Shown piece by piece: positions 3,929 to 46,347 of a DNA stretch of 64,000 nt (positions are counted from its first letter, which is position 1; each line of letters opens with the position of its first letter). Below the pieces are notes generated by a model that was not told the DNA's origin, ran no database searches, and saw only the letters and a list, made by a program, of their open reading frames with translations. Both the position numbers and the translations under genes were made by a program. Origin of the DNA: Nitrospirota bacterium (GTDB lineage: Bacteria; Nitrospirota; UBA9217); the NCBI GenBank assembly GCA_963740085.1, contig CAVUCU010000007.1:122835-186834 (forward strand). The letters run 5' to 3'.

Positions 3929-4357
3929 TTAAACAAACGAGACCATGCGGGTAGCCGCGGAGAAAACAAATACTCGATCCATATTGGATCCCGGATCGGC
4001 GGGAAAAACAAAGAATCCCGGCCGGCCCGGCTGATAGCCCTGCGTCGTTCCGACCAATTCCTCCCCGTCCTTGAATACCACCTTGATCTTTTTCCCCACA
4101 GCCGGCTTGACCGTGTCGAATGTTCTTTTCTCCTGGTATTGACTATCCCCGTCAAAGTCCTTCACAAAAAATACAGCCTTCAATACGTTGACGTAAACAT
4201 CAAGCGGCTTGGAACCGGCCGGGGCGTCATACGGCAGGAGATGGAAAATGTCCTTGTTGGGCATGAAATTGCTCGTATAACCCTTTGATATGCGGCCGTC
4301 CTGATAACGAACGACGATCTTATTTTGTATCATAACGATCCTTTCTTCAGCTTCCAA
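3929..4357 (-). CDS. uncharacterised conserved protein (142 aa), family A paralog 1
   Basis: It shares motifs with the 160-aa ORF at 30651-31133: 'VVRYQDGRISKGYTSNF', 'LKAVFFVKDFDGDS', 'GFFVFPADPGSNMDRVFVF'. It lies 36 nt downstream of the SRAP gene on the same strand. Confidence 0.6.
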   Translation of the reverse strand: MEAEERIVMIQNKIVVRYQDGRISKGYTSNFMPNKDIFHLLPYDAPAGSKPLDVYVNVLKAVFFVKDFDGDSQYQEKRTFDTVKPAVGKKIKVVFKDGEELVGTTQGYQPGRPGFFVFPADPGSNMDRVFVFSAATRMVSFV

Positions 4358-4393: not shown

Positions 4394-5062
4394 CTATCCG
4401 TCCAACGGTTCTATGCTTTCCGGCGAATCGTATTTAAAAGAGTTCACCTTTGGAGTAACAGGGAATAATTCCATCTCCTCTGATGGGTAAGGATTCAATA
4501 GCCCGGGAAGAACTGAACTATCCTGAACCCTGGGATCCAGCCATAGGTCATATTTGTCCGCCGGGGCAATGACCGGCATCCGCTCGTGAATGGGCATGAC
4601 CAACTGGTTCGCGCCGGTCGTTATGATCGTACTCATCGTGAGCAGTTCACCGTCCGGGGACCCCCAGGCGTTATACAGTCCGGCAAAGCCAAATGGCTTG
4701 TGTGACTTGAGCCTGACATAGAAAGGCTTCCTTGTCGTTCCTTCCTTTCGCCATTCGTAGAATCCATCAGCCACCACAAGACACCGCTGTTTCTCGAAGG
4801 CCGATTTGAACGCCTTGCTGCTTGCAACGGTCTCCGCACGAGCATTGATCATCCCGTAGCTGGCATCAAGGTCCTGGGACCAGGACGGCACAAAACCCCA
4901 TCGGGACTTGATAAGCCTCCGTTTACCATCGTTGACGACGATCAGAATGTCCTGACTGGGCGCGATGTTATAGTGGGGCGGATATTCAAGATCCCGGTCA
5001 GCGATCCCGAATATCTCCGCGATTACCTCAATGGCGCTATGTATCTCAAATCGTCCGCACAT
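4394..5062 (-). CDS. yedK: SOS response-associated peptidase (SRAP/YedK/HMCES family)
   Basis: The hallmark N-terminus 'MCGRF' (catalytic Cys2) is present along with conserved 'YNIAPSQ' and 'ADGFYEW' motifs. An extended -10 TGCTATACT and an AGGTGA RBS are visible upstream on the minus strand. Confidence 0.9.
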   Translation of the reverse strand: MCGRFEIHSAIEVIAEIFGIADRDLEYPPHYNIAPSQDILIVVNDGKRRLIKSRWGFVPSWSQDLDASYGMINARAETVASSKAFKSAFEKQRCLVVADGFYEWRKEGTTRKPFYVRLKSHKPFGFAGLYNAWGSPDGELLTMSTIITTGANQLVMPIHERMPVIAPADKYDLWLDPRVQDSSVLPGLLNPYPSEEMELFPVTPKVNSFKYDSPESIEPLDG

Positions 5063-5129
5063 AACCGGTCACCTAACCTGTTGTAAGTATAGCACGTTGC
5101 TGCAACCGCGCCCGGGATCCAGAAAACCC

Positions 5130-5159
5130 TTGACAGGTGAACGTTCGTTCACTTATACT
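5130..5159 (+). promoter_or_regulatory. lexA promoter: -35 TTGACA (5130-5135), -10 TATACT (5154-5159), LexA dyad GTGAACGTTCGTTCAC (5137-5152; Cheo-type GAAC-N4-GTTC at 5139-5150)
   Basis: The palindrome lies in the spacer of a sigma-70-like promoter. The ATG at 5166 sits 7 nt after the -10 element, so the lexA mRNA is probably leaderless. Confidence 0.55.
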
Positions 5160-5165
5160 ATCTTC

Positions 5166-5762
5166 ATGCCATCACCGATCGCTAAGGAAGAAAAGCACCG
5201 CTCCCGCATCCGGGACATTGCCCGTTTCCAGCAGAAAAACGGCAGGATGCCCAGTTTTTCAGAGCTCGGCGAGATAACCGGTCTGCGGTCAAAGAACGCG
5301 GTATTCAAGCTTGTAGGCAAGCTGGAAAAGCTCAAGGTCGTGGCGCGGGACAAGAAGGGCAGGCTTATTCCCGGTTCGATCGCCTGCCCTGTCAAGGTGC
5401 TGGGAACGGTCGAGGCAGGCTTCCCCTCTCCCGCGGAAGAAGAGCTGGTTGATACCCTTTCCCTTGATGATTTCCTGATCCAGAACCGGGAGGCAACCTT
5501 TTTGCTCAAGGTATCCGGCGATTCCATGTCCGGCGCGGGGATACTTGCGGGTGATATGGTCATCGTGGATAAGGGCCGGACGCCAAAGAGCGGCGATATT
5601 GTGATCGCCCAGGTGGACGGTGAGTGGACCATGAAGTACTTACGGAAGCGTGGTGACAACGTGACCCTCGTAGCCGCAAACCCCAAATACCAGCCCATCA
5701 AACCGAAGCGTGAACTCAAGATCTCGGGGGTCGTGACAGCCGTGGTGAGAAAATATAAATAG
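5166..5762 (+). CDS. lexA: LexA repressor (wHTH + S24 peptidase domain)
   Basis: The C-terminal 'VSGDSMSGAGILAGDMVIVD...KYLRKRGDNVTLVAANP' has the Ser/Lys dyad context. The N-terminal 'GRMPSFSELGEITGLRS' matches the DNA-binding region. The ORF-track start at 5031 is an over-extension. Confidence 0.85.
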   Translation: MPSPIAKEEKHRSRIRDIARFQQKNGRMPSFSELGEITGLRSKNAVFKLVGKLEKLKVVARDKKGRLIPGSIACPVKVLGTVEAGFPSPAEEELVDTLSLDDFLIQNREATFLLKVSGDSMSGAGILAGDMVIVDKGRTPKSGDIVIAQVDGEWTMKYLRKRGDNVTLVAANPKYQPIKPKRELKISGVVTAVVRKYK

Positions 5763-5783
5763 GGCAAGGCAAAAATGAATTAG

Positions 5784-6001
5784 TCTCACACGAAGCCACA
5801 AAGCCACGAAGAAAGGCGGAACTCGCAAATGTCCATACAACACAAGGATGGAATGACCGAGATGAATTTCGGTGAAGGTATGATGAAAGATGGCATATCC
5901 CGTATTCTGAACGGACAGGTAACATAGTACGAAAAATCATATCTCACACGAAGCTACAAAGAAAAAAGCTCCCCTTCGTGGCTTTGTGCCTTTGTGTGAG
6001 A
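5784..6001. repeat. MITE-like element with ~30-bp terminal inverted repeats (TCTCACACGAAGCCACAAAGCCACGAAG ... CTTCGTGGCTTTGTGCCTTTGTGTGAGA)
   Basis: The ends are reverse complements of each other. The internal 5942-5967 stretch repeats the left end. The motifs are related to the 12014/23135/53224 repeat family. Confidence 0.5.
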
Positions 6002-6190
6002 ACGATCTGTTTTTTACGAGGATCAAATTCCGTCTTGCGGAAAATTATGAACGATGTTAAGCTGAATGCGGATCGAAGCCGATGACATGCCGATACGGCT
6101 GCAGGCTAAAGCAGCACCTCTGGGAAAGCGCATACAGAGAGATGCTTCTTGTCCGAATAAATAAGTTAGGCTCTACTAAGGAGGAAATGA

Positions 6191-7270
6191 GTGGGCGTTG
6201 AGGAGAAAAACAGGAACGAAATCCTTTCCCGGGTAGTTGCCGCTCTCTTTGTGAAATCGAAGGGAGGGGAAGAGCTGTCATCCAATATCCATCGTCTCCG
6301 CGAGGAAATAAAGAAAGTGATCGAAGGTGAGGATACGATATTCGGAAAATTCCGTGGACTCGTGGAATCGTTCCGGGACATCATTCCTGAGGAGAAACAG
6401 CGTTATCATGCCGCTATCCAGGCATTGTCGACAACTTCGAAGCTAAGCCAGCAAGAGATCGTTAAGGCCGTCAACAATCAGTTCGAGGAGCTTAAAATAC
6501 TCGAGAAGGGTTTAATGCCTGCCCTCCCCGGTTGGCGCGACGAGCTTAAGGTCATGGAAACCAGATCGCGGGAGATGCGGGACGAGATATCGAAACTGCG
6601 TGAAAAAATAGGGCAGCTTGAGAGCGAAGAAAAAGGGATACTCACTGGCATGGCGGCACGGGAAAAGGAAATGGCGCTCGTCGAGAAGGCAGTGACCGAA
6701 CTTTTCACGGATTTGGGAGCGGAGATAACCTCTATCAAAAAAAAGGTTGAGGAATTTACTGCTGAAAGTGCGGCCTCTCAGCCAATCCCGGCCAAGGATT
6801 CTATGAAAAGTGATATTCCCCGCGAGGAAAAGGGAAGCGGCGAGCGGAAAAGCGAGATCCCCGAGTCTCCAGCACCGCAGGGTGCGGAATGGCAGAAAAA
6901 ATGCCCTATGTGCGGGGGGCGAATGGACTTCTACAGTCAGGAGGAAATGTGGCAGTGTTATTCCTGCGCATACGAAGAACTAAAAAAGGATGAAGCTCCG
7001 GGTGAAAGCGAAGAGAAAAGTGAGCCTGCGAACGCACCTCAACCCGCTCCGGCTTCGAAGCCGGGTTCCGGTCCATCTCCGCGCCGTGCCGTCCATATGG
7101 GATCCCTGTCTTCCGACGAAAACCAGGAACCAAGAGAGGAATCATCACTGTCCATTAACCAGCCATCGTCCAAAAAAAAGACCTGTCCGGTCTGCCGTAA
7201 AAAGATGGATTGGCACCAGAAGGAGAAGGCCTGGCGGTGCCCCTTCTGCGACTACGAGAGAAGTATCTAA
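6191..7270 (+). CDS. hypothetical coiled-coil protein with two C-terminal zinc ribbons (GTG start)
   Basis: AAGGAGG RBS sits 7 nt before the GTG start. The N-terminal approximately 200 aa is heptad-rich and charged. Zinc ribbons are 'CPMCGGRMD...CYSCAYEE' and 'CPVCRKKMD...CPFCDYE', separated by a Pro/Ser/Glu-rich linker. Confidence 0.6.
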   Translation: MGVEEKNRNEILSRVVAALFVKSKGGEELSSNIHRLREEIKKVIEGEDTIFGKFRGLVESFRDIIPEEKQRYHAAIQALSTTSKLSQQEIVKAVNNQFEELKILEKGLMPALPGWRDELKVMETRSREMRDEISKLREKIGQLESEEKGILTGMAAREKEMALVEKAVTELFTDLGAEITSIKKKVEEFTAESAASQPIPAKDSMKSDIPREEKGSGERKSEIPESPAPQGAEWQKKCPMCGGRMDFYSQEEMWQCYSCAYEELKKDEAPGESEEKSEPANAPQPAPASKPGSGPSPRRAVHMGSLSSDENQEPREESSLSINQPSSKKKTCPVCRKKMDWHQKEKAWRCPFCDYERSI

Positions 7271-7281
7271 GAGGGCGCATC

Positions 7282-8103
7282 ATGTCTGAAATCTTCGGTT
7301 TCGATGCATTCTCCCCTAAAGAAATCGCTGCGCGGGTCCAAACAATCGGCGTGGTCAAGGCTCGCCTGCCGCTAATTCCCATGCTGATGCTGAGTGTGCT
7401 GGCCGGAGCCTTTATCGCCCTGGGTGCGCTCTACTTTGTGATTGTCAAATCTGACCCCTCCTTGGGCTTTGCCGCCAAACAGGTGCTCGGCGGCGTGACC
7501 TTCTCTTTGGGGTTGATTCTCGTGGTCGTCGCAGGTGCGGAGTTATTCACGGGAAATAATCTGCTGGCGATGGCCTGGGCTGATGGAAAGATTTCCACCC
7601 TCGAGCTGCTGCAGAACTGGGCAATTGTTTGCGTCGGCAATTTTATTGGCGCAGCCGGACTTGCGCTCTTGGTTTTTCTCTCCCATCACCCTGAAATGAA
7701 CAATGGCGAAATTGCACAAGAGTATCTCAGGATTGCCTCAGCCAAGGTCGCCATGCCGTTCTGGACGGCCTTCTTTAAGGGCATCCTCTGTAATGTCCTG
7801 GTGTGCATAGCGGTATGGATGGCGCTTGCCGGACGAAGCGTTATCGATAAGGCTGTGGCAATTATATTTCCCGTGTCTGCTTTCGTTGCGGCAGGCTTCG
7901 AACATAGCGTCGCCAATATGTTCTTTATCCCGCTCGCGATGCTGCTGCAGAACTTCGACAACATAGGAGTGAACTCCAATACCATTACCTGGGTTGGTTT
8001 CTTCGGAAATCTGGTGCCGGTAATACTGGGTAATATTGTCGGCGGCAGCGTTCTGGTTGGATTAGTGTACCACCTCATCTACCGGCAAAAGCGGCATACA
8101 TAA
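7282..8103 (+). CDS. formate/nitrite transporter family protein (FocA/NirC-like)
   Basis: FNT signature regions 'LAGAFIALG', 'VVVAGAELFTGNNL' and 'GNFIGAAGLALLV' are present. Six TM helices are predicted by eye. Confidence 0.85.
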   Translation: MSEIFGFDAFSPKEIAARVQTIGVVKARLPLIPMLMLSVLAGAFIALGALYFVIVKSDPSLGFAAKQVLGGVTFSLGLILVVVAGAELFTGNNLLAMAWADGKISTLELLQNWAIVCVGNFIGAAGLALLVFLSHHPEMNNGEIAQEYLRIASAKVAMPFWTAFFKGILCNVLVCIAVWMALAGRSVIDKAVAIIFPVSAFVAAGFEHSVANMFFIPLAMLLQNFDNIGVNSNTITWVGFFGNLVPVILGNIVGGSVLVGLVYHLIYRQKRHT

Positions 8104-8244
8104 ACACATAAAATTCCCGACCCGAAGGAACCTATAGGGCCTTTCTCCCTGAGTATACCCTGTTTGAGTTGCTGGAGGAGGGAATGCAACGAAAAATACC
8201 CGGCCCCAAAGACTCCTGCTCGGATTGTTCTAAACTCTGGCGCA

Positions 8245-8901
8245 ATGATGAAAAATAAAGCGGTCATCTTTGATCTTGACGGTACACTGCTCGATACGCT
8301 TGAAGATATCGCATATGCGGCCAATCGGGTTCTGGCTTCGAGGGGTTTGCCTATCCGTCCGCTGGATGTCCACAGGGCCGCAATCGGAAACGGGGCCCGC
8401 CAGTTGATGGAACGTGTGTTGCCGGAAGGCAACCGCGATCCGAAGACGATCGAGGAATGTTTCGCGGCTTTCCGTAAAGAGTACGGAGAACATTGGAACG
8501 TCAAAACCAAACCCTATCCCGGCGTACCGGAAACGCTGGATGCCTTACAAGCACGCGGATTGAAGATGGCCGTCTTGTCCAACAAGCCGGCTGATTTTAC
8601 GCGTAAATGTGTATATGGAATTCTATCGAAATGGAAGTTCGATCCTGTGGTTGGTGCAGAGCGTGGAATTCCGAGCAAACCAGATCCTGCCGGGGCCCTT
8701 GATATCGCCAAACGCCTTGGTATTTCGCCGGAAGAATTCGTCTATCTTGGTGACAGCGGAGTTGACATGAAAACGGCAACCGCGGCAGGCATGTTCGCCG
8801 TAGGAGCATTGTGGGGGTTTCGAAGTCGTGAAGAGTTACAACAAGAAGGGGCAAAGGTATTGCTGGAACGTCCTCAGGATATTATAAATTTGTTCGAGTG
8901 A
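8245..8901 (+). CDS. HAD-superfamily hydrolase, phosphoglycolate phosphatase-like (subfamily IA)
   Basis: Motif I 'FDLDGTLLDT', motif II 'VLSNKP' and motif IV 'YLGDSGVDMKTATAAG' are present. Confidence 0.8.
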   Translation: MMKNKAVIFDLDGTLLDTLEDIAYAANRVLASRGLPIRPLDVHRAAIGNGARQLMERVLPEGNRDPKTIEECFAAFRKEYGEHWNVKTKPYPGVPETLDALQARGLKMAVLSNKPADFTRKCVYGILSKWKFDPVVGAERGIPSKPDPAGALDIAKRLGISPEEFVYLGDSGVDMKTATAAGMFAVGALWGFRSREELQQEGAKVLLERPQDIINLFE

Positions 8902-8995
8902 GGGTGAAAAGACCACGATCTATTGTACTTTTTTCGCCCTCCGTCTCCGCGTCCCCCCGTCACCGTGTCGGGTTTATCATCTATCGGAGTTGTTT

Positions 8996-10309
8996 ATGAC
9001 CGACCAATTCATATCCCTCTCCTCCTGGCCGCAGGCGATCATGCATATCGACGCCGACGCCTTTTTTGCCTCCTGTGAGCAGGCGATCCATCCGGAACTT
9101 AAAGGGAGGCCGGTGATCTGCGGCAAGGAGCGCGGCATTGTCGCCGCCGCGAGCTATGAGGCAAAGGCCCGGGGAGTCACTCGCGGGGTGCGGCTTTCGG
9201 ACGTGAAGAAGATCTGTCCCGATGCGGTCATTCTTCCGTCCGATTATGAGACCTACAGTCTCTTTTCCGTTCGCATGTTCGAGATCCTGCGGCGCTTTTC
9301 ACCTGATGTCGAGGAGTACTCTATTGATGAGGCCTTTGTCGATCTGACCGGCCTGAGACGAAGCTATCATGGCCCGTATGAAGTGATCGCCGAAAAAATG
9401 CGAACAGCGATCGAGACAGAGCTGGGGATCACCGTATCGGCCGGGGTAAGCCTTTCCAAGGTCCTGGCCAAGATCGGATCAAAGCACAATAAACCGAACG
9501 GTCTCACCATGATCCCGGGGAGAGATATTCATCGTTATCTGGAGAAACTGCCTGTCGAAAAGGTCTGGGGCATAGGGGCGAACACGGCGGCATTTCTGAG
9601 AAAGCACGGGATCACAACCGCTTTGCAGTTCACAAAAAAGGACGAGGGCTTCATAAAGAAGTTTCTGTCAAAACCCTACCAGGAGATCTGGCACGAGTTG
9701 AACGGCAGGAGCGTGTACCCGGTCACCACGGAGACAAAGAACAGCTACCAGTCGATAAGCAAGGCCAGGACCTTTACGCCGCCGTCCATGGATGAGGGTT
9801 TTGTATTTGCCCAGCTCTCCAAGAACCTGGAAAACGCATGCATCAAGGCAAGGAGGTACCGGCTGGCGGCCGCGCGGATCATTGTGTTCCTCAGGAAGCA
9901 GGATTTTACGAGCAGTGGAGTGGAAATTAAGCTGACCCGGCCTACCGCGTACCCGGTGGAACTGTTCGGGCTCCTGCGCCAGGGCTTTGAGCAGGTATTC
10001 GAATCCCGGGCCTTATACCGTCAGACAGGGGTCGTTCTTTCCGGCCTGGTCGCGGAGGGCGGGATCCAGTTCAGCCTTTTCGATGATACGACAAAGATAG
10101 AGAAGATGGCCAGGATCTACAGCGTCGTTGATGAGATCTCGGCGAAGTACGGAAAGCACACCATTCAGCACGCAGCGAGCCTGCCGACGAAGCTCCAGGC
10201 CCAGCACGAGGGAGAGCGGGGTGATGTCCCGGTAAGAAGAGCGGACCTGTTCAAAGGTGAGACCAGGCGACAGCGGCTGGGACTGCCCTTACTGCATATG
10301 AAGGTGTAA
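8996..10309 (+). CDS. Y-family DNA polymerase (DinB/UmuC-like translesion polymerase)
   Basis: 'MHIDADAFFASCEQ...GRPVICG...GIVAAASYEAKARGV...SIDEAFVDLTG' matches the Y-family catalytic core. GGAG RBS is 7 nt upstream of the ATG at 8996. Confidence 0.85.
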   Translation: MTDQFISLSSWPQAIMHIDADAFFASCEQAIHPELKGRPVICGKERGIVAAASYEAKARGVTRGVRLSDVKKICPDAVILPSDYETYSLFSVRMFEILRRFSPDVEEYSIDEAFVDLTGLRRSYHGPYEVIAEKMRTAIETELGITVSAGVSLSKVLAKIGSKHNKPNGLTMIPGRDIHRYLEKLPVEKVWGIGANTAAFLRKHGITTALQFTKKDEGFIKKFLSKPYQEIWHELNGRSVYPVTTETKNSYQSISKARTFTPPSMDEGFVFAQLSKNLENACIKARRYRLAAARIIVFLRKQDFTSSGVEIKLTRPTAYPVELFGLLRQGFEQVFESRALYRQTGVVLSGLVAEGGIQFSLFDDTTKIEKMARIYSVVDEISAKYGKHTIQHAASLPTKLQAQHEGERGDVPVRRADLFKGETRRQRLGLPLLHMKV

Positions 10310-28330: not shown

Positions 28331-28685
28331 CATAGGCTGTTTGAAAACACCTAATTTATTCGCGCACTGCCACAATGCCATTTTCTTGTCGTGCGGTGCT
28401 GAGATTTTACCAACTTCACCTACTAGTCCGCAATTGCAGATAGACGAAACTATCGTTAAATACGGATTGTAAAGTGCACACATCGCCCGTAAATTTTTTT
28501 CATCTTTTGCGTCGAATGCCGTCCGCCGTATTGGCGCTAGTCGCGGTATCCTTCCGATGTCTGGTCTGTTCGAAGCTTGTCAGATCCGAAGAGCGGAAGT
28601 CGGTAGGATAGCACGTATACAACTATTCAAGCTCTCTGTTTGATACAACAAGGGAAGTCGCCCAGCCGCCGGGCAACCGAGGTTG

Positions 28686-29555
28686 TTAAGAGGTGGTTGA
28701 TGACAAATTCAAGATCTTGGATTTCACTACATTTTTACCGGTTTCCCTGGCCGAATTCATAAGATCTTCGGCCATAGCGATCAGTTCATCTAATGTGCAT
28801 GTCGGGCCGTCGCAGGTAACGACACCTGTACTGAATGCTACCGGCCAGCCCTTTTTTTTCACCATATCCAGAAGACGTTCCTGAACTTTATAAATGATAA
28901 CCGTGGCGTTCTCATTATTTGTTTCCGGCATAAGAACAGCGAATTTGGAACCCCCAAGTCTCGAAATTATATCTGTGAGCCGCAATGTTGACCCCATGAT
29001 CTGGGCTAATTCATGGAGGAGGTAATCGCCTGCAATATGGCCGAGGGTGTCATTTACCTGTCGTAAATTATCTATATCGATATATGCTAGAGTGAGAGGT
29101 AGTTTAGATATAGTCGATCTGCTGATTTCAATACGTGCCTGCTCATAAAAGAATTTGATATTAGCTACGCCCGTCAAATCGTCGGTGTCGGCATGTTCAT
29201 GTTCCTTTATCAATGATTTTTTTAAGGTTGCAATGGAATAGGCAACGATTAAAAACATACTTAGCACCAGTGTGGCGTTCCAAATGCGAACAGTGATATG
29301 AGAATAATTATGTCCAGACATCAGGTCAGACGTTGCCCAGGTGATAGCACTGAAAATTGATACCAGGACGGTAGGCATTCCTCCCACGTACCAAGCGATC
29401 AGTATGATGGGAAGAAGATAGAGCACATCTAGGGAAATATCATAGCTCGCTATAGTATCAAGACCGCCGATTGCCAATACGAGGAGCAATCCGAAAATCG
29501 TAAGAATTGATTTTGGGAGTTTTTCAGGGAATTCTATGATTTTCTTTATCCGCAT
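28686..29555 (-). CDS. membrane-anchored GGDEF-domain protein with degenerate active site (GGSKF) and intact RxxD I-site
   Basis: Four to five N-terminal TM helices are present. The GGDEF fold has 'RLTDIISRLGGSKFAVLM' (RxxD-xxx-RLGG then S-K-F in place of D/E-E-F). GC content is lower than the flanks. Confidence 0.8.
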   Translation of the reverse strand: MRIKKIIEFPEKLPKSILTIFGLLLVLAIGGLDTIASYDISLDVLYLLPIILIAWYVGGMPTVLVSIFSAITWATSDLMSGHNYSHITVRIWNATLVLSMFLIVAYSIATLKKSLIKEHEHADTDDLTGVANIKFFYEQARIEISRSTISKLPLTLAYIDIDNLRQVNDTLGHIAGDYLLHELAQIMGSTLRLTDIISRLGGSKFAVLMPETNNENATVIIYKVQERLLDMVKKKGWPVAFSTGVVTCDGPTCTLDELIAMAEDLMNSARETGKNVVKSKILNLSSTTS

Positions 29556-29792
29556 AACAGCCGATGCTTGCAGTGGTAGATAATATTAAATGATCTTCTT
29601 TGGCCCGCCCTGTAAGCTAGACCTCGGGTAACGGGATGAGCATTTTCTGTAAAATAGCACTCATCCTTATAGCTATTATTTCTTTGCAGATAATAGCTTA
29701 TGCCTATAAAAATTACTAGTTGAACTATGTACATGAATAGCGTGTTGAAAAAGTACAGGTTACAGGACGTTATATATGCTGCACTCTTCACG

Positions 29793-30593
29793 TTAGGTTC
29801 GACCCTCTGGTTGTTCACCTTCTCGTGCGACGCTGTTTTTCATTCTTACCCACTGGTCTATGAACGTTTGGAGCAACGTTTTATCCTTGTCCGTCAGATC
29901 GACAAACTCCGACCCTATATCATAGTGTGTTTGCCCCTTGTTTTCCTTCATGTGGCATGAAGCAATTCGTCCGATAAAATTGACCGCGGTGCCATCATTC
30001 AGAGACAATTCCATGGGGACCTTGCTTTCTATTGCCAGAGCCTGATCAGTCTGGATGAGCATGCCGCTGAGACTGATTGTTTTCACATTAAAATTCGCGG
30101 GATAGCTCAAAACATGCTCATTCAGACCGGTAATTTGAAATCTGACATTGAGCCTCCGCTCCTCCGGTAATGGCGCTTTTTCTTTTTGGTTTTGCACTAT
30201 TGATTTAAGAAAATCGGCGACCTGATCCGCTGAGCTCTCTTTAAACTGCATGCCTACAGCGTATATGGAGACACTTTCCCCGTTGTCTCTTGCCTCTATT
30301 CCCTTGAGCTCGGAACGGACTATAATGCCCGTTACATTGAGAGTCTTCCCTTTATCCTGGAGCTTGATCGTATATTCCCTGCCGGGATTCAGTCTCCGGT
30401 CCGATTTCAAGGCAACTCCGCCGAGACCGATATCAAGGATCTCCACTTTATCGGATAAACTCATCTTGCCCTTTAAGTCATTTAACTCCAGGTAGTATCT
30501 TTTATGTCGTCTCGTGTTGTTCATGATAGGTTTCTTCTCAATTGACAAGTTGTCAGAATACTCATTCTGAGAGCTCATGTCTACAAAAGCCAT
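29793..30593 (-). CDS. tandem PilZ-domain protein
   Basis: PilZ 1 has 'RRHKR' (RxxxR) and 'DIGLGGVAL'. PilZ 2 has 'RRLNVR' and 'ISLSGML' (partly degenerate). Confidence 0.75.
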   Translation of the reverse strand: MAFVDMSSQNEYSDNLSIEKKPIMNNTRRHKRYYLELNDLKGKMSLSDKVEILDIGLGGVALKSDRRLNPGREYTIKLQDKGKTLNVTGIIVRSELKGIEARDNGESVSIYAVGMQFKESSADQVADFLKSIVQNQKEKAPLPEERRLNVRFQITGLNEHVLSYPANFNVKTISLSGMLIQTDQALAIESKVPMELSLNDGTAVNFIGRIASCHMKENKGQTHYDIGSEFVDLTDKDKTLLQTFIDQWVRMKNSVAREGEQPEGRT

Positions 30594-30650
30594 GGATTAC
30601 TCCTGGCTTAATCAGTCTTGACCTGCGCAATCTATTCATGGTTCCATCCC

Positions 30651-31133
30651 TTACGTCATGATCGTGACGTTTTCGATCGCGCTCCCCACGACAAAGACCC
30701 TTTTGTTATTGCTATCTTCGTCAACGGGGATGAGGAAAAACCCCTTGGCCCCCTTGCCCAGCTTGGATAGGGAAAACCCCTTGTCCCAGGGGATCTCACC
30801 CTCGATGAACCCGACCAGCGATTCTTTATCGATGAACTTAACAAAAACCTTTCGGCCAAGGTTCTTCCTGCTCCCGAAAACCTTCCGTTCGACATATCGA
30901 CTGGAGCCCTCAAAGCTCTTGACGAAAAAAATCGCCTTCAGCTCTTCCATCGGGACGCGGTTTTCCTTGTTTGTCTGGTCACTCATGATGAGCGTGTCCG
31001 ATTCTATACTGAAATTTCTCACGAAGCCCTTCAAAAGTCTTCCGTCCCTGAACCTGGCGACGATCTTTTCTCCTTCATTATTTTTCAAACAGTCACCTCC
31101 GGAGCACCGATTAATTGTTCCCAGGATACTCAA
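30651..31133 (-). CDS. uncharacterised conserved protein (160 aa), family A paralog 2
   Basis: It shares motif blocks with the 3929-4357 product ('VARFRDGRLLKGFVRNF', 'LKAIFFVKSFEGSS', 'GFFLIPVDEDSNNKRVFVV'). Confidence 0.6.
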   Translation of the reverse strand: MSILGTINRCSGGDCLKNNEGEKIVARFRDGRLLKGFVRNFSIESDTLIMSDQTNKENRVPMEELKAIFFVKSFEGSSRYVERKVFGSRKNLGRKVFVKFIDKESLVGFIEGEIPWDKGFSLSKLGKGAKGFFLIPVDEDSNNKRVFVVGSAIENVTIMT

Positions 31134-31145
31134 TCTGGGAATAAT

Positions 31146-31481
31146 TCAACCAACAAACCGGCCAAGCAGTATATCCTCAAGATTGCGTCTTGCATCGAGG
31201 ACGGCGAGAACATATACAGTTTGGCCGGATATTCTGCAAATCATTCTCCAGGGGGCAATGATTATTTCCCGATAGAGAATAATGCCCTGTTCCTTCAACT
31301 CAGGCACAACAACGCGGCCTCTTTCCGGCAGGACATGCAAGCCAACCGCCTTCTTGCGCATTCTTTCCACTATCTTCAGCGCCTCATCGATACTGTCTTC
31401 GGCGATAAATCCGATGATTGAATCCAAATCATACTCAGCGGTGGCCGTCCATTTGACGGTAAAGTTACGACTCATCGGCAT
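31146..31481 (-). CDS. ParE/RelE-family type II toxin
   Basis: The approximately 110-aa product has a ParE-like composition ('WTATAEYDLDSI', 'ERGRVVVPELKEQGII'). It overlaps the upstream Phd/YefM gene by 17 nt. Confidence 0.65.
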   Translation of the reverse strand: MPMSRNFTVKWTATAEYDLDSIIGFIAEDSIDEALKIVERMRKKAVGLHVLPERGRVVVPELKEQGIILYREIIIAPWRMICRISGQTVYVLAVLDARRNLEDILLGRFVG

Positions 31482-31764
31482 TTCGCTGTTTCCTGGCCTT
31501 CAGCTTGTGCTCAAGACGTTTGAAAATATCCTCCTGTTCACTGGTCCTTCCAAGACGAATATCCTCTTCTCCCTGAGCAAGGACCTTCATCAAACCTATT
31601 GCGGACTTCATGCGCTCATACGATTCAGGGTCTTGCAGAACGGCGCGTGGTTCCCCGTTTTGCGTGATAATGACCGGCCTGTGCGTTTCATTGATCTGCA
31701 GCAATATATCCGCGGCCTTTGATTTGAGATACGTCACGGGTCGAATGTCTTCACTGATTTTCAT
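31465..31764 (-). CDS. Phd/YefM-family antitoxin
   Basis: 'MKISEDIRPVTYLKSKAADILLQINETHRPVIITQNGEPRAVL' is the Phd/YefM fold signature. The ORF-track start at 31833 is an over-extension. Confidence 0.75.
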   Translation of the reverse strand: MKISEDIRPVTYLKSKAADILLQINETHRPVIITQNGEPRAVLQDPESYERMKSAIGLMKVLAQGEEDIRLGRTSEQEDIFKRLEHKLKARKQRNADES

Positions 31765-31881
31765 TCTCCACCTCCTGTCCGAATAACGTACCATAAAAGG
31801 TCCTTTAACGCAAGCGGCTTTTTCGGTCATCAAATGACTTTACGCCCATGGGTTAAACTTTAAGCGTGGCGATATCTCCAG

Positions 31882-31928
31882 CCTTGACCTGAACCCCCGC
31901 CCCAGCATGCCGCTGTGAGTTATTCTCA
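31882..31928. repeat. direct repeat R (attR-like): diverged copy of the tsaD 3' end
   Basis: 91% identical to 28284-28330. It would encode ...LDLNPRPSMPL* in the tsaD frame. Confidence 0.6.
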
Positions 31929-32273
31929 ATTAATGCAAAATAGTTCTTGCTATTCCCTCATAATACTGTATTATGCACGTCGACTGTTTAACATTGCGGC
32001 AGGATTTGACTGAAGTACACACACACGTCATCATCTCTCTGCCCTTCATATCATCGATCTCTAACCCCCCTTGTTTTCAGCCCCCGCTCTGAAATCACAG
32101 CAGCACGTATGGTTGGCGAACGATGTAGTTATGCCGGTCATATTTGTGCTGGCGTCGTCTTCGCTCTCAGGGATACCTTTGTGCCCCTGCGGCCCGCACG
32201 CAAACCCTTAACGGGATTTCTGTTTCCGGAATGAATATATCTTCATTTCGGCGTAAGAGATCAAAGGAGTCGT

Positions 32274-44370: not shown

Positions 44371-46347
44371 TTACAGTTTTCCCTTCACCAGGTTATTCAC
44401 CACCGATGGATCAGCCAGCGTCGAGGTATCGCCGAGTTCATCTATCTGGCCGTGCGCGATCTTCCGCAGGATGCGGCGCATGATCTTGCCGCTCCGCGTC
44501 TTCGGGAGTCCGGGCGCGAACTGCAGCTTGTCCGGAGTGGCGATCGGCCCGATGACCGAACGGACATGACCGGTGAGTATCTTCTTGAGCTCATCGGTCG
44601 GCTTGAATCCGTCCTTGAGTGTCACGTAAACATAGATCCCTTCGCCCTTGATGTCATGCGGATAGCCGACCACTGCGGCCTCGGCGACCGCTTCGTGGCT
44701 GACGAGCGCGGACTCGACCTCGGCCGTGCCGAGCCGGTGTCCGGACACGTTGATCACATCATCTACGCGGCCCATGAGCCAGTAATCGCCGCTCTCGTCC
44801 ACCCGCGCGCCGTCACCGGTAAAGTACTTGCCCGGGAACCTGCTGAAGTAGACCTCTTTGATGCGCTTGTTCTCGGGATCGCCGTAGGTGCCGCGTAGCA
44901 TGCCGGGCCAGGGCTTATTGATGCATAGGTATCCGCCCTCGTTTGCACCGGCCGGCGAACCGTCTTCTTTTACTACCTGGGGTACGACCCCGGGGAACGG
45001 TCTCGTTGCCGAACCTGGCTTAGCCGTGATCGCGCCGGGAAGCCCGGTGATCAGGATTCCGCCGGTCTCGGTCTGCCACCACGTGTCAACGATCGGTACT
45101 TTTTCCCTGCCCACAAACTTATGGTACCACATCCACGCCTCGGGATTGATGGGCTCGCCCACGCTTCCAAGGACCTTCAGGGACGACAACTCGTGGCTGG
45201 TCACCCACTTATCCCCTTCTTTCATCAGGGCGCGGATCGCCGTGGGTGCGGTATAGAAGATATTCACCCGATGTTTGTCCACAATGTCCCAGAACCTGCC
45301 CGGATCGGGATAGCTCGGGATGCCCTCGAACATGAGCGACGTCGCTCCGTTCGAAAGCGGTCCGTAGAGGATATAGCTGTGGCCCGTGACCCATCCGATG
45401 TCGGCGGTGCAGAAGTGGATGTCCTCATCATGGTAGTCGAAGATCCACCGGAAGCTCAAATTGGTATAGAGCATGTAACCAGCCGTGGTGTGCAGCACTC
45501 CCTTGGGTTTTCCCGTGGAGCCGGAGGTGTAGAGGATGAAGAGCGGGTCCTCAGCGTCCATCTTCTCGGGCTCGCAATAATTGGCGATGTCCTTCCCTGC
45601 CATCTCCTCATGCCACCAGGTGTCCCTGCCCGGTTCCATGTTTATCTTGCCCGTGCCTGCCCGCTGAACCACGATCATGTCCTTGACCGTCGGGCATTCA
45701 AGGATCGCCTCATCGGCGTTCGCCTTCAAAGGCACGTACCGGCCGCCACGGACCCCTTCGTCCGCGGTGATGACCATGGATGACTGGCAATCCTGGATGC
45801 GGTCACGCATTGCCTTCGCGGAAAAACCGCCAAACACCACGCTGTGTATCGCGCCCACCCGGGCGCAGGCCAGCATGGAGATGGCAAGCTCCGGGATCAT
45901 CGGCAAATAGATGGTGACCCGGTCTCCCTTCTTGATGCCCTTCTTCTTGAGAACGTTGGCGAAGCGGTTCACCTCGGTGTAAAGCTGCTGGTAGGTGAAG
46001 GTCTTGTATTCCCCGCCATCTGACTCCCAGATGAGCGCCGCCTTGTTGCGCGTCGTAGTATTGATGAACCGGTCAAGGCAGTTCACCGAGGCATTCAACT
46101 TACCACCGCTGAACCACTTGATATACGGCTTGTGAAAATCATAGTCCAGGACCTTGTCCCACTTTTTGTACCACGTGAGGTTCTTCTCAGCCATCTCGGC
46201 CCAGAACTTGTCGGGCTCGTCTATGGACCTCTTGTAGATCTTTTCGTACTCCTTCATGCTCTTGATATGAGCTTTTGCGCTGAACTCCTTTGATGGGGGA
46301 AACTCTCTTTTTTCCGTTGATAGGACCTGGATGCTTTCATCAGCCAT
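44371..46347 (-). CDS. acs: acetyl-CoA synthetase
   Basis: 'MADESIQ...', AMP-binding '[13 protein letters not shown]', 'YWLMGRVDD' and the C-terminal Lys context are present. The true start at 46347 follows an AGGAG RBS. Confidence 0.9.

Follow-up and report, generated by a model that had tools for sequence, protein, structure and literature searches.

DUF6982, a predicted tandem Sm-like barrel module recurrently fused to PilZ domains, and its two paralogs in a Nitrospirota genome

PilZ proteins are the most common receptors of the bacterial second messenger cyclic dimeric guanosine monophosphate (c-di-GMP), and their downstream partner is mostly unknown. In the YcgR-type two-domain receptors and in the trans-acting single-domain proteins alike, a PilZ reader is coupled to a partner module. 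Single-domain PilZ proteins are reported to act as trans-acting adaptors (PMC11250160). Among the small barrel proteins, the Sm/LSm/Hfq fold consists of an N-terminal alpha-helix and five strongly bent antiparallel strands, with one barrel per subunit. The WYL domain is an Sm-like Src homology 3 (SH3) barrel that binds c-di-GMP or single-stranded DNA (ssDNA), and one WYL domain binds c-di-GMP with a dissociation constant (Kd) of 0.22 uM (PMC11880434). In the work presented here we analyzed a stretch of 64,000 nucleotides from a Nitrospirota bacterium (contig CAVUCU010000007.1, positions 122,835 to 186,834 of the forward strand; referred to as the window), which encodes two members, A and B, of the Pfam family DUF6982 (PF22478). 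This family is already catalogued in Pfam as a domain of unknown function; new here are its tandem Sm-like architecture, as predicted, and a link to PilZ that is based on gene fusions. The two genes are the following:

3929..4333, minus strand: paralog A, DUF6982 protein of 134 amino acids (open reading frame; Pfam PF22478 over its full length, E=4e-27; AlphaFold2 model)
30651..31088, minus strand: paralog B, DUF6982 protein of 145 amino acids with a 12-amino-acid insertion in the second barrel (open reading frame; Pfam PF22478, E=4e-26)

Judged by their sequences, A and B are full-length, typical members of DUF6982, and both are stand-alone proteins. At a gathering threshold of 24.5 bits, A scores 95.2 bits over positions 2-130 and B 92.2 bits over positions 3-133 of the 134 model positions, and both match the family end to end with no differing feature. 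The description of the pair as an uncharacterised family, given in an earlier note made from the letters of the window, was borne out in that the Pfam search returned a name without a functional annotation and no well-characterised family matched.

Additional domains were surveyed in the 56 family representatives longer than about 185 amino acids, with PilZ being called at E<=1e-3. At least 15 of them contain PilZ, always N-terminal to DUF6982, and two further ones reach E<=0.005. REC, FHA, Macro and DnaJ were found as partners once each. The fusions fall into size classes of 256-272, 297-336 and 439-478 amino acids, and PilZ is recognisable in nine out of ten members of the longest class. In 15 of the 17 fusions examined the canonical RxxxR motif is followed by [DN]xSxxG (accepted at a distance of 15-45 amino acids), mostly with a spacing of 26-29 amino acids. 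Thus, going by these motifs, the PilZ-DUF6982 fusions look like competent c-di-GMP receptors. In the structural model of one fusion, P0340, DUF6982 is predicted as a confident, autonomous unit (predicted local distance difference test, pLDDT, ~95) behind a helical linker. As the fusion partners are all signal readers, namely of c-di-GMP, a phosphoryl group, phospho-threonine or ADP-ribose, DUF6982 is most simply understood as their shared output or targeting module.

One of the fusions bears directly on the surroundings of B, where two further genes follow in the same direction:

29793..30593, minus strand: tandem-PilZ protein, immediately downstream of B (Pfam PilZ in two stretches, E=5e-17)
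28686..29555, minus strand: membrane DUF4118-GGDEF protein, the third co-directional gene (Pfam GGDEF, E=1e-30; DUF4118 below cut-off)

In P0283 the domains are arranged as PilZ-PilZ-DnaJ-DUF6982. Residues 1-222 of this protein are 42% identical to the tandem-PilZ protein of the window (E=3e-56), and its last 130 residues are 38% identical to B (E=1e-22). Thus, two neighbouring genes of the window occur elsewhere as a single polypeptide, which by the classical argument points to a functional link between them. The earlier note had also proposed a link of B to c-di-GMP signalling, for the reason that B adjoins the PilZ gene. The proposal itself is strengthened by P0283 and the recurrent PilZ-DUF6982 fusions, but its reason does not hold up, as this adjacency is found only in the window and in one twin contig (L166).

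Our favoured interpretation, which we put at a probability of roughly one half, is that DUF6982 serves as a target-binding or output module under the control of signal readers, chiefly of c-di-GMP-binding PilZ domains, with B acting in trans together with the adjacent PilZ protein and A being a general copy. In many bacteria the PilZ reader would be fused ahead of DUF6982, whereas in the present genome B would have moved next to the tandem-PilZ and degenerate GGDEF genes on an insert of low G+C content. Binding of c-di-GMP to PilZ would cause PilZ to bind or to release B, probably in trans, and this would change the hold of B on its target. Paralog A, which has no dedicated neighbour, would be the general-purpose copy. 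Going by fold and charge, our first guess at this target would be a nucleic acid or a nucleotide-like ligand, with a conserved protein partner being no less possible. The far-reaching version, according to which DUF6982 is a broad effector module of c-di-GMP or, more generally, of reader domains, that is a tandem Sm-like nucleic-acid binder switched by PilZ in cis or in trans, appears doubtful to us at present.

Several observations weigh against a PilZ-controlled output module. The model of P0340 contains no reliable interface between PilZ and DUF6982 (predicted template modelling score, pTM, 0.55), and PilZ is modelled there with low confidence. The clusters from which the PilZ fusions stem are small and metagenomic, and no more than about 10-13% among the top 150 representatives are such fusions, the family members being mostly stand-alone proteins. 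In the model of A, the conserved polar residues are placed in the beta1-beta2 turn and the beta3'-beta4' loop, which are not known as canonical Sm RNA pockets. The tandem-PilZ protein of the window reads RRHKR..DIGLGG and RLNVR..TISLSG, so that both RxxxR motifs are kept and both second motifs are altered; given these degenerate second motifs, binding of c-di-GMP by this protein is not assured. P0283 has TVSLGG at the position of the altered second motif. Furthermore, open reading frames were called on 165 loci with A-type or B-type genes, the neighbours were clustered, and a Pfam census was taken of 120 adjacent co-directional genes. PilZ is absent from the 25 commonest families of this census. 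In related genomes, the orthologs of B and of the PilZ gene are not neighbours, and no DUF6982 gene lies near any of four PilZ orthologs. The stand-alone members instead have housekeeping, clade-specific neighbours (Pyridox_ox_2, thiL-like/pdxJ, SurA, LolA, hemE).

DUF6982 is, in any case, a recurrent, compact and strongly conserved module found behind PilZ, in hundreds of species of poorly studied phyla. If it is a binding module controlled by PilZ, c-di-GMP signalling would gain a new branch on its output side, and a testable role would be at hand for the family. If it is in addition an RNA or nucleic-acid binder switched by PilZ, c-di-GMP would act directly on post-transcriptional control in Nitrospirota, Syntrophales and Acidobacteriota, lineages without studied models. 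The cluster of B, tandem-PilZ and degenerate GGDEF genes is a natural set of three proteins for testing the link between PilZ and DUF6982. Should this link fail, A and B would be two ordinary members of an uncharacterised family, and for the two genes themselves the novelty is modest.

The fold was assessed on an AlphaFold2 model of A (pLDDT 88.8, pTM 0.83), in which residues 4-57 and 81-133 each form a five-stranded barrel, the two being connected by a linker of lower confidence. A secondary alignment between the paralogs, in which residues 81-109 of A are matched to residues 14-42 of B, hinted at an internal repeat. Profiles of the N-terminal and C-terminal halves, built from 136 divergent representatives (taken from clusters at 50% identity), align with an hhalign probability of 96.9% (E=1.3e-10), which argues for an internal duplication. 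Thus, the module, of about 130-145 amino acids and mostly basic (median isoelectric point, pI, of the domain 9.2), is predicted to be a duplicated Sm/Hfq-like five-stranded barrel of about 60 amino acids. In contrast to Sm, LSm and Hfq proteins, which have one barrel per subunit, there are thus two barrels per chain, the N-terminal alpha-helix is lacking in the model of A, and the conserved polar residues occupy different loops. No LSM or Hfq profile is reached above threshold by either protein. The LSM family (PF01423) matches one half of each protein at 14.6 and 14.4 bits (cut-off 23.4 bits; E ~0.03), namely on its V.V.(F/Y).DG...G start, and the snRNP model of NCBIfam gives E=0.069.

The basic charge of DUF6982 would also fit a generic small nucleic-acid binder, such as an Hfq/Sm-like RNA chaperone or an ssDNA binder, for which the PilZ fusions and the adjacency to PilZ would be occasional recruitments. 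That most members are stand-alone proteins in housekeeping contexts, that some of them are labelled 'snRNP-like protein' in the JGI annotation, and that two DUF6982 matches occur in some proteins, hinting at oligomeric assemblies, speaks for such a binder as well. However, the LSM scores stay below the cut-off (14.5 as against 23.4 bits), the N-terminal helix is missing from the model of A, and no solved two-barrel relative was found. In addition, PilZ is by far the commonest fusion partner, a preference that one would not expect of a purely generic module, and RNA-related genes do not recur among the 120 adjacent genes. We therefore regard this explanation as possible but clearly less probable than an output module controlled by PilZ and other readers.

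Other small-barrel families were compared as well. A phmmer search of the PDB with both sequences yielded no relative; the top match, CapV (E=0.087), was dismissed as chance. The top Foldseek matches of the model, FXR1, FMRP and 53BP1, are weak (E ~0.03-0.1). Tandem Tudor/Agenet proteins, which are eukaryotic methyl-lysine readers, have two small tandem barrels like DUF6982, but with TM-scores of 0.26-0.33 and a root-mean-square deviation above 11 A the arrangement of the barrels is not shared and no homology is implied. As for PilZ itself, neither A nor B shows the combination of RxxxR and (D/N)xSxxG, a six-stranded barrel and a match to Pfam PF07238. WYL domains resemble DUF6982 by analogy, as small Sm-like barrels of a class that binds ligands or nucleic acids in bacterial signalling; they are single barrels on helix-turn-helix regulators, whereas DUF6982 is a tandem barrel and mostly stand-alone. 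No WYL profile matched A or B in the Pfam scan (E<=1), and no sequence relationship was detectable.

The conservation pattern raises a further possibility. The family-wide motifs DG..KG...F, LKA.FFV..F.G, F.D.E..G and GFF..P.D..(S)NN, all found in A and B, are 80-100% conserved in the 136 representatives. Within them, the K of LKA, the G after FVK.F, the D and E of F.DGE and the GFF..P.D..SNN block reach 97-100%. K, D, E, N, P and the GFF motif show no or almost no variation; in the numbering of A, the invariant residues include K52, D89, E91, D113 and N117. Near-perfect conservation of polar and aromatic loop residues below 50% sequence identity is typical of a ligand pocket, and DUF6982 might accordingly be a receptor for a small ligand, a nucleotide second messenger or a metabolite, which provides a second input beside PilZ, REC, FHA or Macro. 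The precedent of the Sm-like WYL barrel with its Kd of 0.22 uM for c-di-GMP (PMC11880434) and the protein P0261, in which DUF6982 lies N-terminal to REC and hence in the usual position of a sensor, are in line with this, as are recurring neighbours with names related to pyridoxal phosphate (PLP; Pyridox_ox_2 14 times, PdxJ ten times). On the other hand, neither Pfam nor NCBIfam relates DUF6982 to WYL or to other known ligand-binding families, DUF6982 is C-terminal, in the usual output position, in all fusions with PilZ, Macro and FHA, and the PLP-related neighbours are split over two clades and two paralogs and may be coincidental. Overall, a receptor function seems unlikely to us, and the placement behind the readers agrees better with an output module.

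Three Macro-DUF6982 fusions of 272-299 amino acids (P0337, P0395, P0398) stem from metagenome-assembled genomes (MAGs) of Brocadiales and Nitrospirota. They share a cluster at 90% identity with stand-alone forms of 128 amino acids, which would point to a recent fusion or fission event, or else to differing gene calls. Three other members (P0241, P0253, P0255) have two DUF6982 matches per chain, which would amount to four barrels and hints at a module working as a dimer or higher oligomer. Ten high-GC loci have long frames that are open upstream; nine of them have no added Pfam domain and look like start-codon artefacts, and the tenth (L148, 462 amino acids) has no PilZ match either.

With regard to the pair itself, both open reading frames claimed in the earlier note were found on the minus strand. 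The maximal frames comprise 142 amino acids for A, with a TTG start at 4357, and 160 for B, extending to 31133, but by start-site features and orthologs the products are likely to be shorter, with 134 and 145 amino acids, respectively. For A, an ATG at 4333 is preceded by AAAGGA 6 nucleotides upstream, and its close orthologs, all of 133-134 amino acids, begin at the same ATG. For B, a TTG at 31088 has GGAGGT 6 nucleotides upstream, and P0121, a 99% identical database protein of 145 amino acids, begins there. A and B are 37% identical (51% positives) over 142 aligned amino acids (BLASTP, E=2e-25), in keeping with the 35-40% estimated from the letters; as the sequences stand, they are genuine paralogs with a similarity far above chance. 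The three shared motif blocks that had been described are present as well, but the third one is interrupted in B by the 12-amino-acid insertion PWDKGFSLSKLG, which is common to B-type proteins. A profile search of the six-frame translation revealed no third copy in the window; a weak tblastn match of A, at 45887-45973 within a gene for acetyl-CoA synthetase, was attributed to chance. A and B represent two old paralog subfamilies, each conserved separately. Relatives can have both types side by side in one genome, as with P0047 and P0133, which bear locus tags of one 'Nitrospirae bacterium' MAG.

The family is large and widespread. PF22478 is given in the precomputed Pfam column for every listed homolog of A and B, and these homologs, when clustered at 90% identity, make up 1110 (A) and 320 (B) clusters. 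A search with a profile combining both subfamilies retrieved 1717 clusters (50% identity), and for 895 of these the match has E<=1e-10. Relatives are encoded in more than 563 species genomes from many phyla, nearly all of them MAGs, the closest being from Nitrospirota (93%). The carriers are labelled as Nitrospirota, Syntrophales/Smithellaceae, Acidobacteriota, Gemmatimonadota, Zixibacteria, Krumholzibacteriia, Ignavibacteriales, Actinomycetota, Myxococcales and NC10. In the collections of mobile elements, tblastn gave no match for B in plasmids and none for A in phages. NCBIfam has no model for A or B, and a literature search found no paper mentioning 'DUF6982' or 'PF22478'.

Upstream of A lies a group of genes of the SOS type, spanning 4394-10309:

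4394..5062, minus strand: SRAP/YedK-like gene, upstream of A (Pfam SRAP, E=1e-70)
5031..5762, plus strand: S24/LexA-like gene, divergent to the SRAP gene (Pfam)
8990..10309, plus strand: DinB/IMS-family polymerase

The position of A downstream of SRAP/yedK was given correctly in the earlier note, and the assignments of the SRAP, S24/LexA-like, tandem-PilZ and GGDEF neighbours are all borne out by Pfam; with the corrected start of A, however, the gap measures 60 rather than 36 nucleotides. This arrangement on the same strand, the divergent S24/LexA-like gene, the IMS/DinB gene about 4.6 kb away and the SRAP-A order kept in six close relatives would suit an accessory factor of an SOS or DNA-damage cluster that acts with SRAP on damaged DNA. 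But orthologs of A with at most 67% identity have other upstream genes (LEA_2, Pyridox_ox_2, membrane proteins, trpE), SRAP is represented only five times among the 120 adjacent genes, in each case in the nearest clade, and no fusion to a DNA-repair domain was seen among the 56 longer members. We consider an SOS function highly improbable and the weakest of the rival explanations. The SRAP gene is upstream of A only in the six closest relatives (L006-L009, L012, L163), and the adjacency is, we infer from this pattern, an incidental, shallow synteny that is no evidence of an SOS function.

Beyond such close relatives the survey of 165 loci and 120 adjacent genes revealed no conserved operon partner, only clade-specific neighbours. 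In 14 loci of Smithellaceae and Syntrophaceae (within L034-L082), a Pyridox_ox_2 (PNPOx-like) gene lies upstream of the A-type gene, and the A-type genes of other clades adjoin small membrane proteins, LEA_2/patatin or a REC-DUF4388 response regulator. In close relatives, the B-type gene follows a divergent hemE-hemH-hemY cluster. Distant B-type genes are located between an AIR-synthase-like (thiL-like) gene and pdxJ or beside LolA, SurA or FolD; the order thiL-like (AIRS)-DUF6982-pdxJ was seen in L102-L107, L113, L115 and L117-L119, and pdxJ is adjacent in ten loci. When the proteins of the window were compared with all surveyed neighbours by BLAST, the GGDEF protein had homologs in two Actinomycetota loci (L059 and L061), and PilZ and ParE had none.

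The REC-DUF4388 (PatA_N/PATAN-type) gene starts on the stop codon of DUF6982 with an overlap of 4 nucleotides in L002/L003 (6402-7064) and L155 (721-1383), and L014, with the same flanking genes, probably has the same arrangement. This overlap suggests translational coupling of DUF6982 with another signalling protein.

On its other side, B is directly preceded by a toxin-antitoxin pair:

31146..31481, minus strand: ParE toxin (Pfam), part of the Phd/ParE pair directly upstream of B
31465..31833, minus strand: Phd/YefM antitoxin (Pfam), on the same low-GC insert

The block from about 28400 to 32000 has a GC content of 0.46-0.47 in 2-kb segments and of 0.43-0.49 per gene (0.48-0.49 for the Phd and ParE genes), whereas the tsaD and DEAD-box genes on its flanks have 0.60. 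B, the tandem-PilZ gene and the GGDEF gene are co-directional and alike in their low GC content, and the order Phd-ParE-B-PilZPilZ-GGDEF was found only in the window and on the metagenomic contig L166, which is 99% identical. The low GC content together with this restricted distribution indicates a lineage-specific insert. The contrast between an island copy and a core copy, drawn in the earlier note, can therefore be kept for the site of B in this genome, which is island-like with its low GC content and Phd/ParE genes, but not for the B subfamily, which is conserved and lies in housekeeping contexts in relatives. The Phd/ParE pair itself is context and not a functional part of the B/PilZ system.

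The start of the tandem-PilZ gene is ambiguous: an ATG at 30593 with a good AGGAG site would give 266 amino acids and an ATG at 30524 would give 243, the length of most orthologs. The DUF4118-GGDEF protein reads RLTDIISRLGGSKF, in which GG(D/E)EF is replaced by GGSKF (RLGGSKF), and an RxxD I-site, RLTD, is located at the usual distance, five residues upstream. By established knowledge of GGDEF motifs, the GGSKF site together with the retained RxxD makes a receptor or scaffold more likely than a cyclase; the protein would thus probably bind c-di-GMP or serve as a scaffold and not act as a diguanylate cyclase. The insert would therefore encode three proteins of the receptor or effector type and not a synthesis module. 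The anti-phage defence models of PADLOC gave no match for A, B, PilZ, GGDEF, ParE or Phd. No Rfam family reached its gathering score in the whole 64 kb (no tRNA, rRNA, riboswitch or known small RNA), and scans for promoters and terminators stayed at background level.

A further gene of the window, at 6191-7270 on the plus strand, encodes a protein of 359 amino acids. Its Pfam matches are all below threshold; it has a long coiled-coil-like N-terminal half and two zinc-ribbon-like CxxC...CxxC motifs at the C-terminus.
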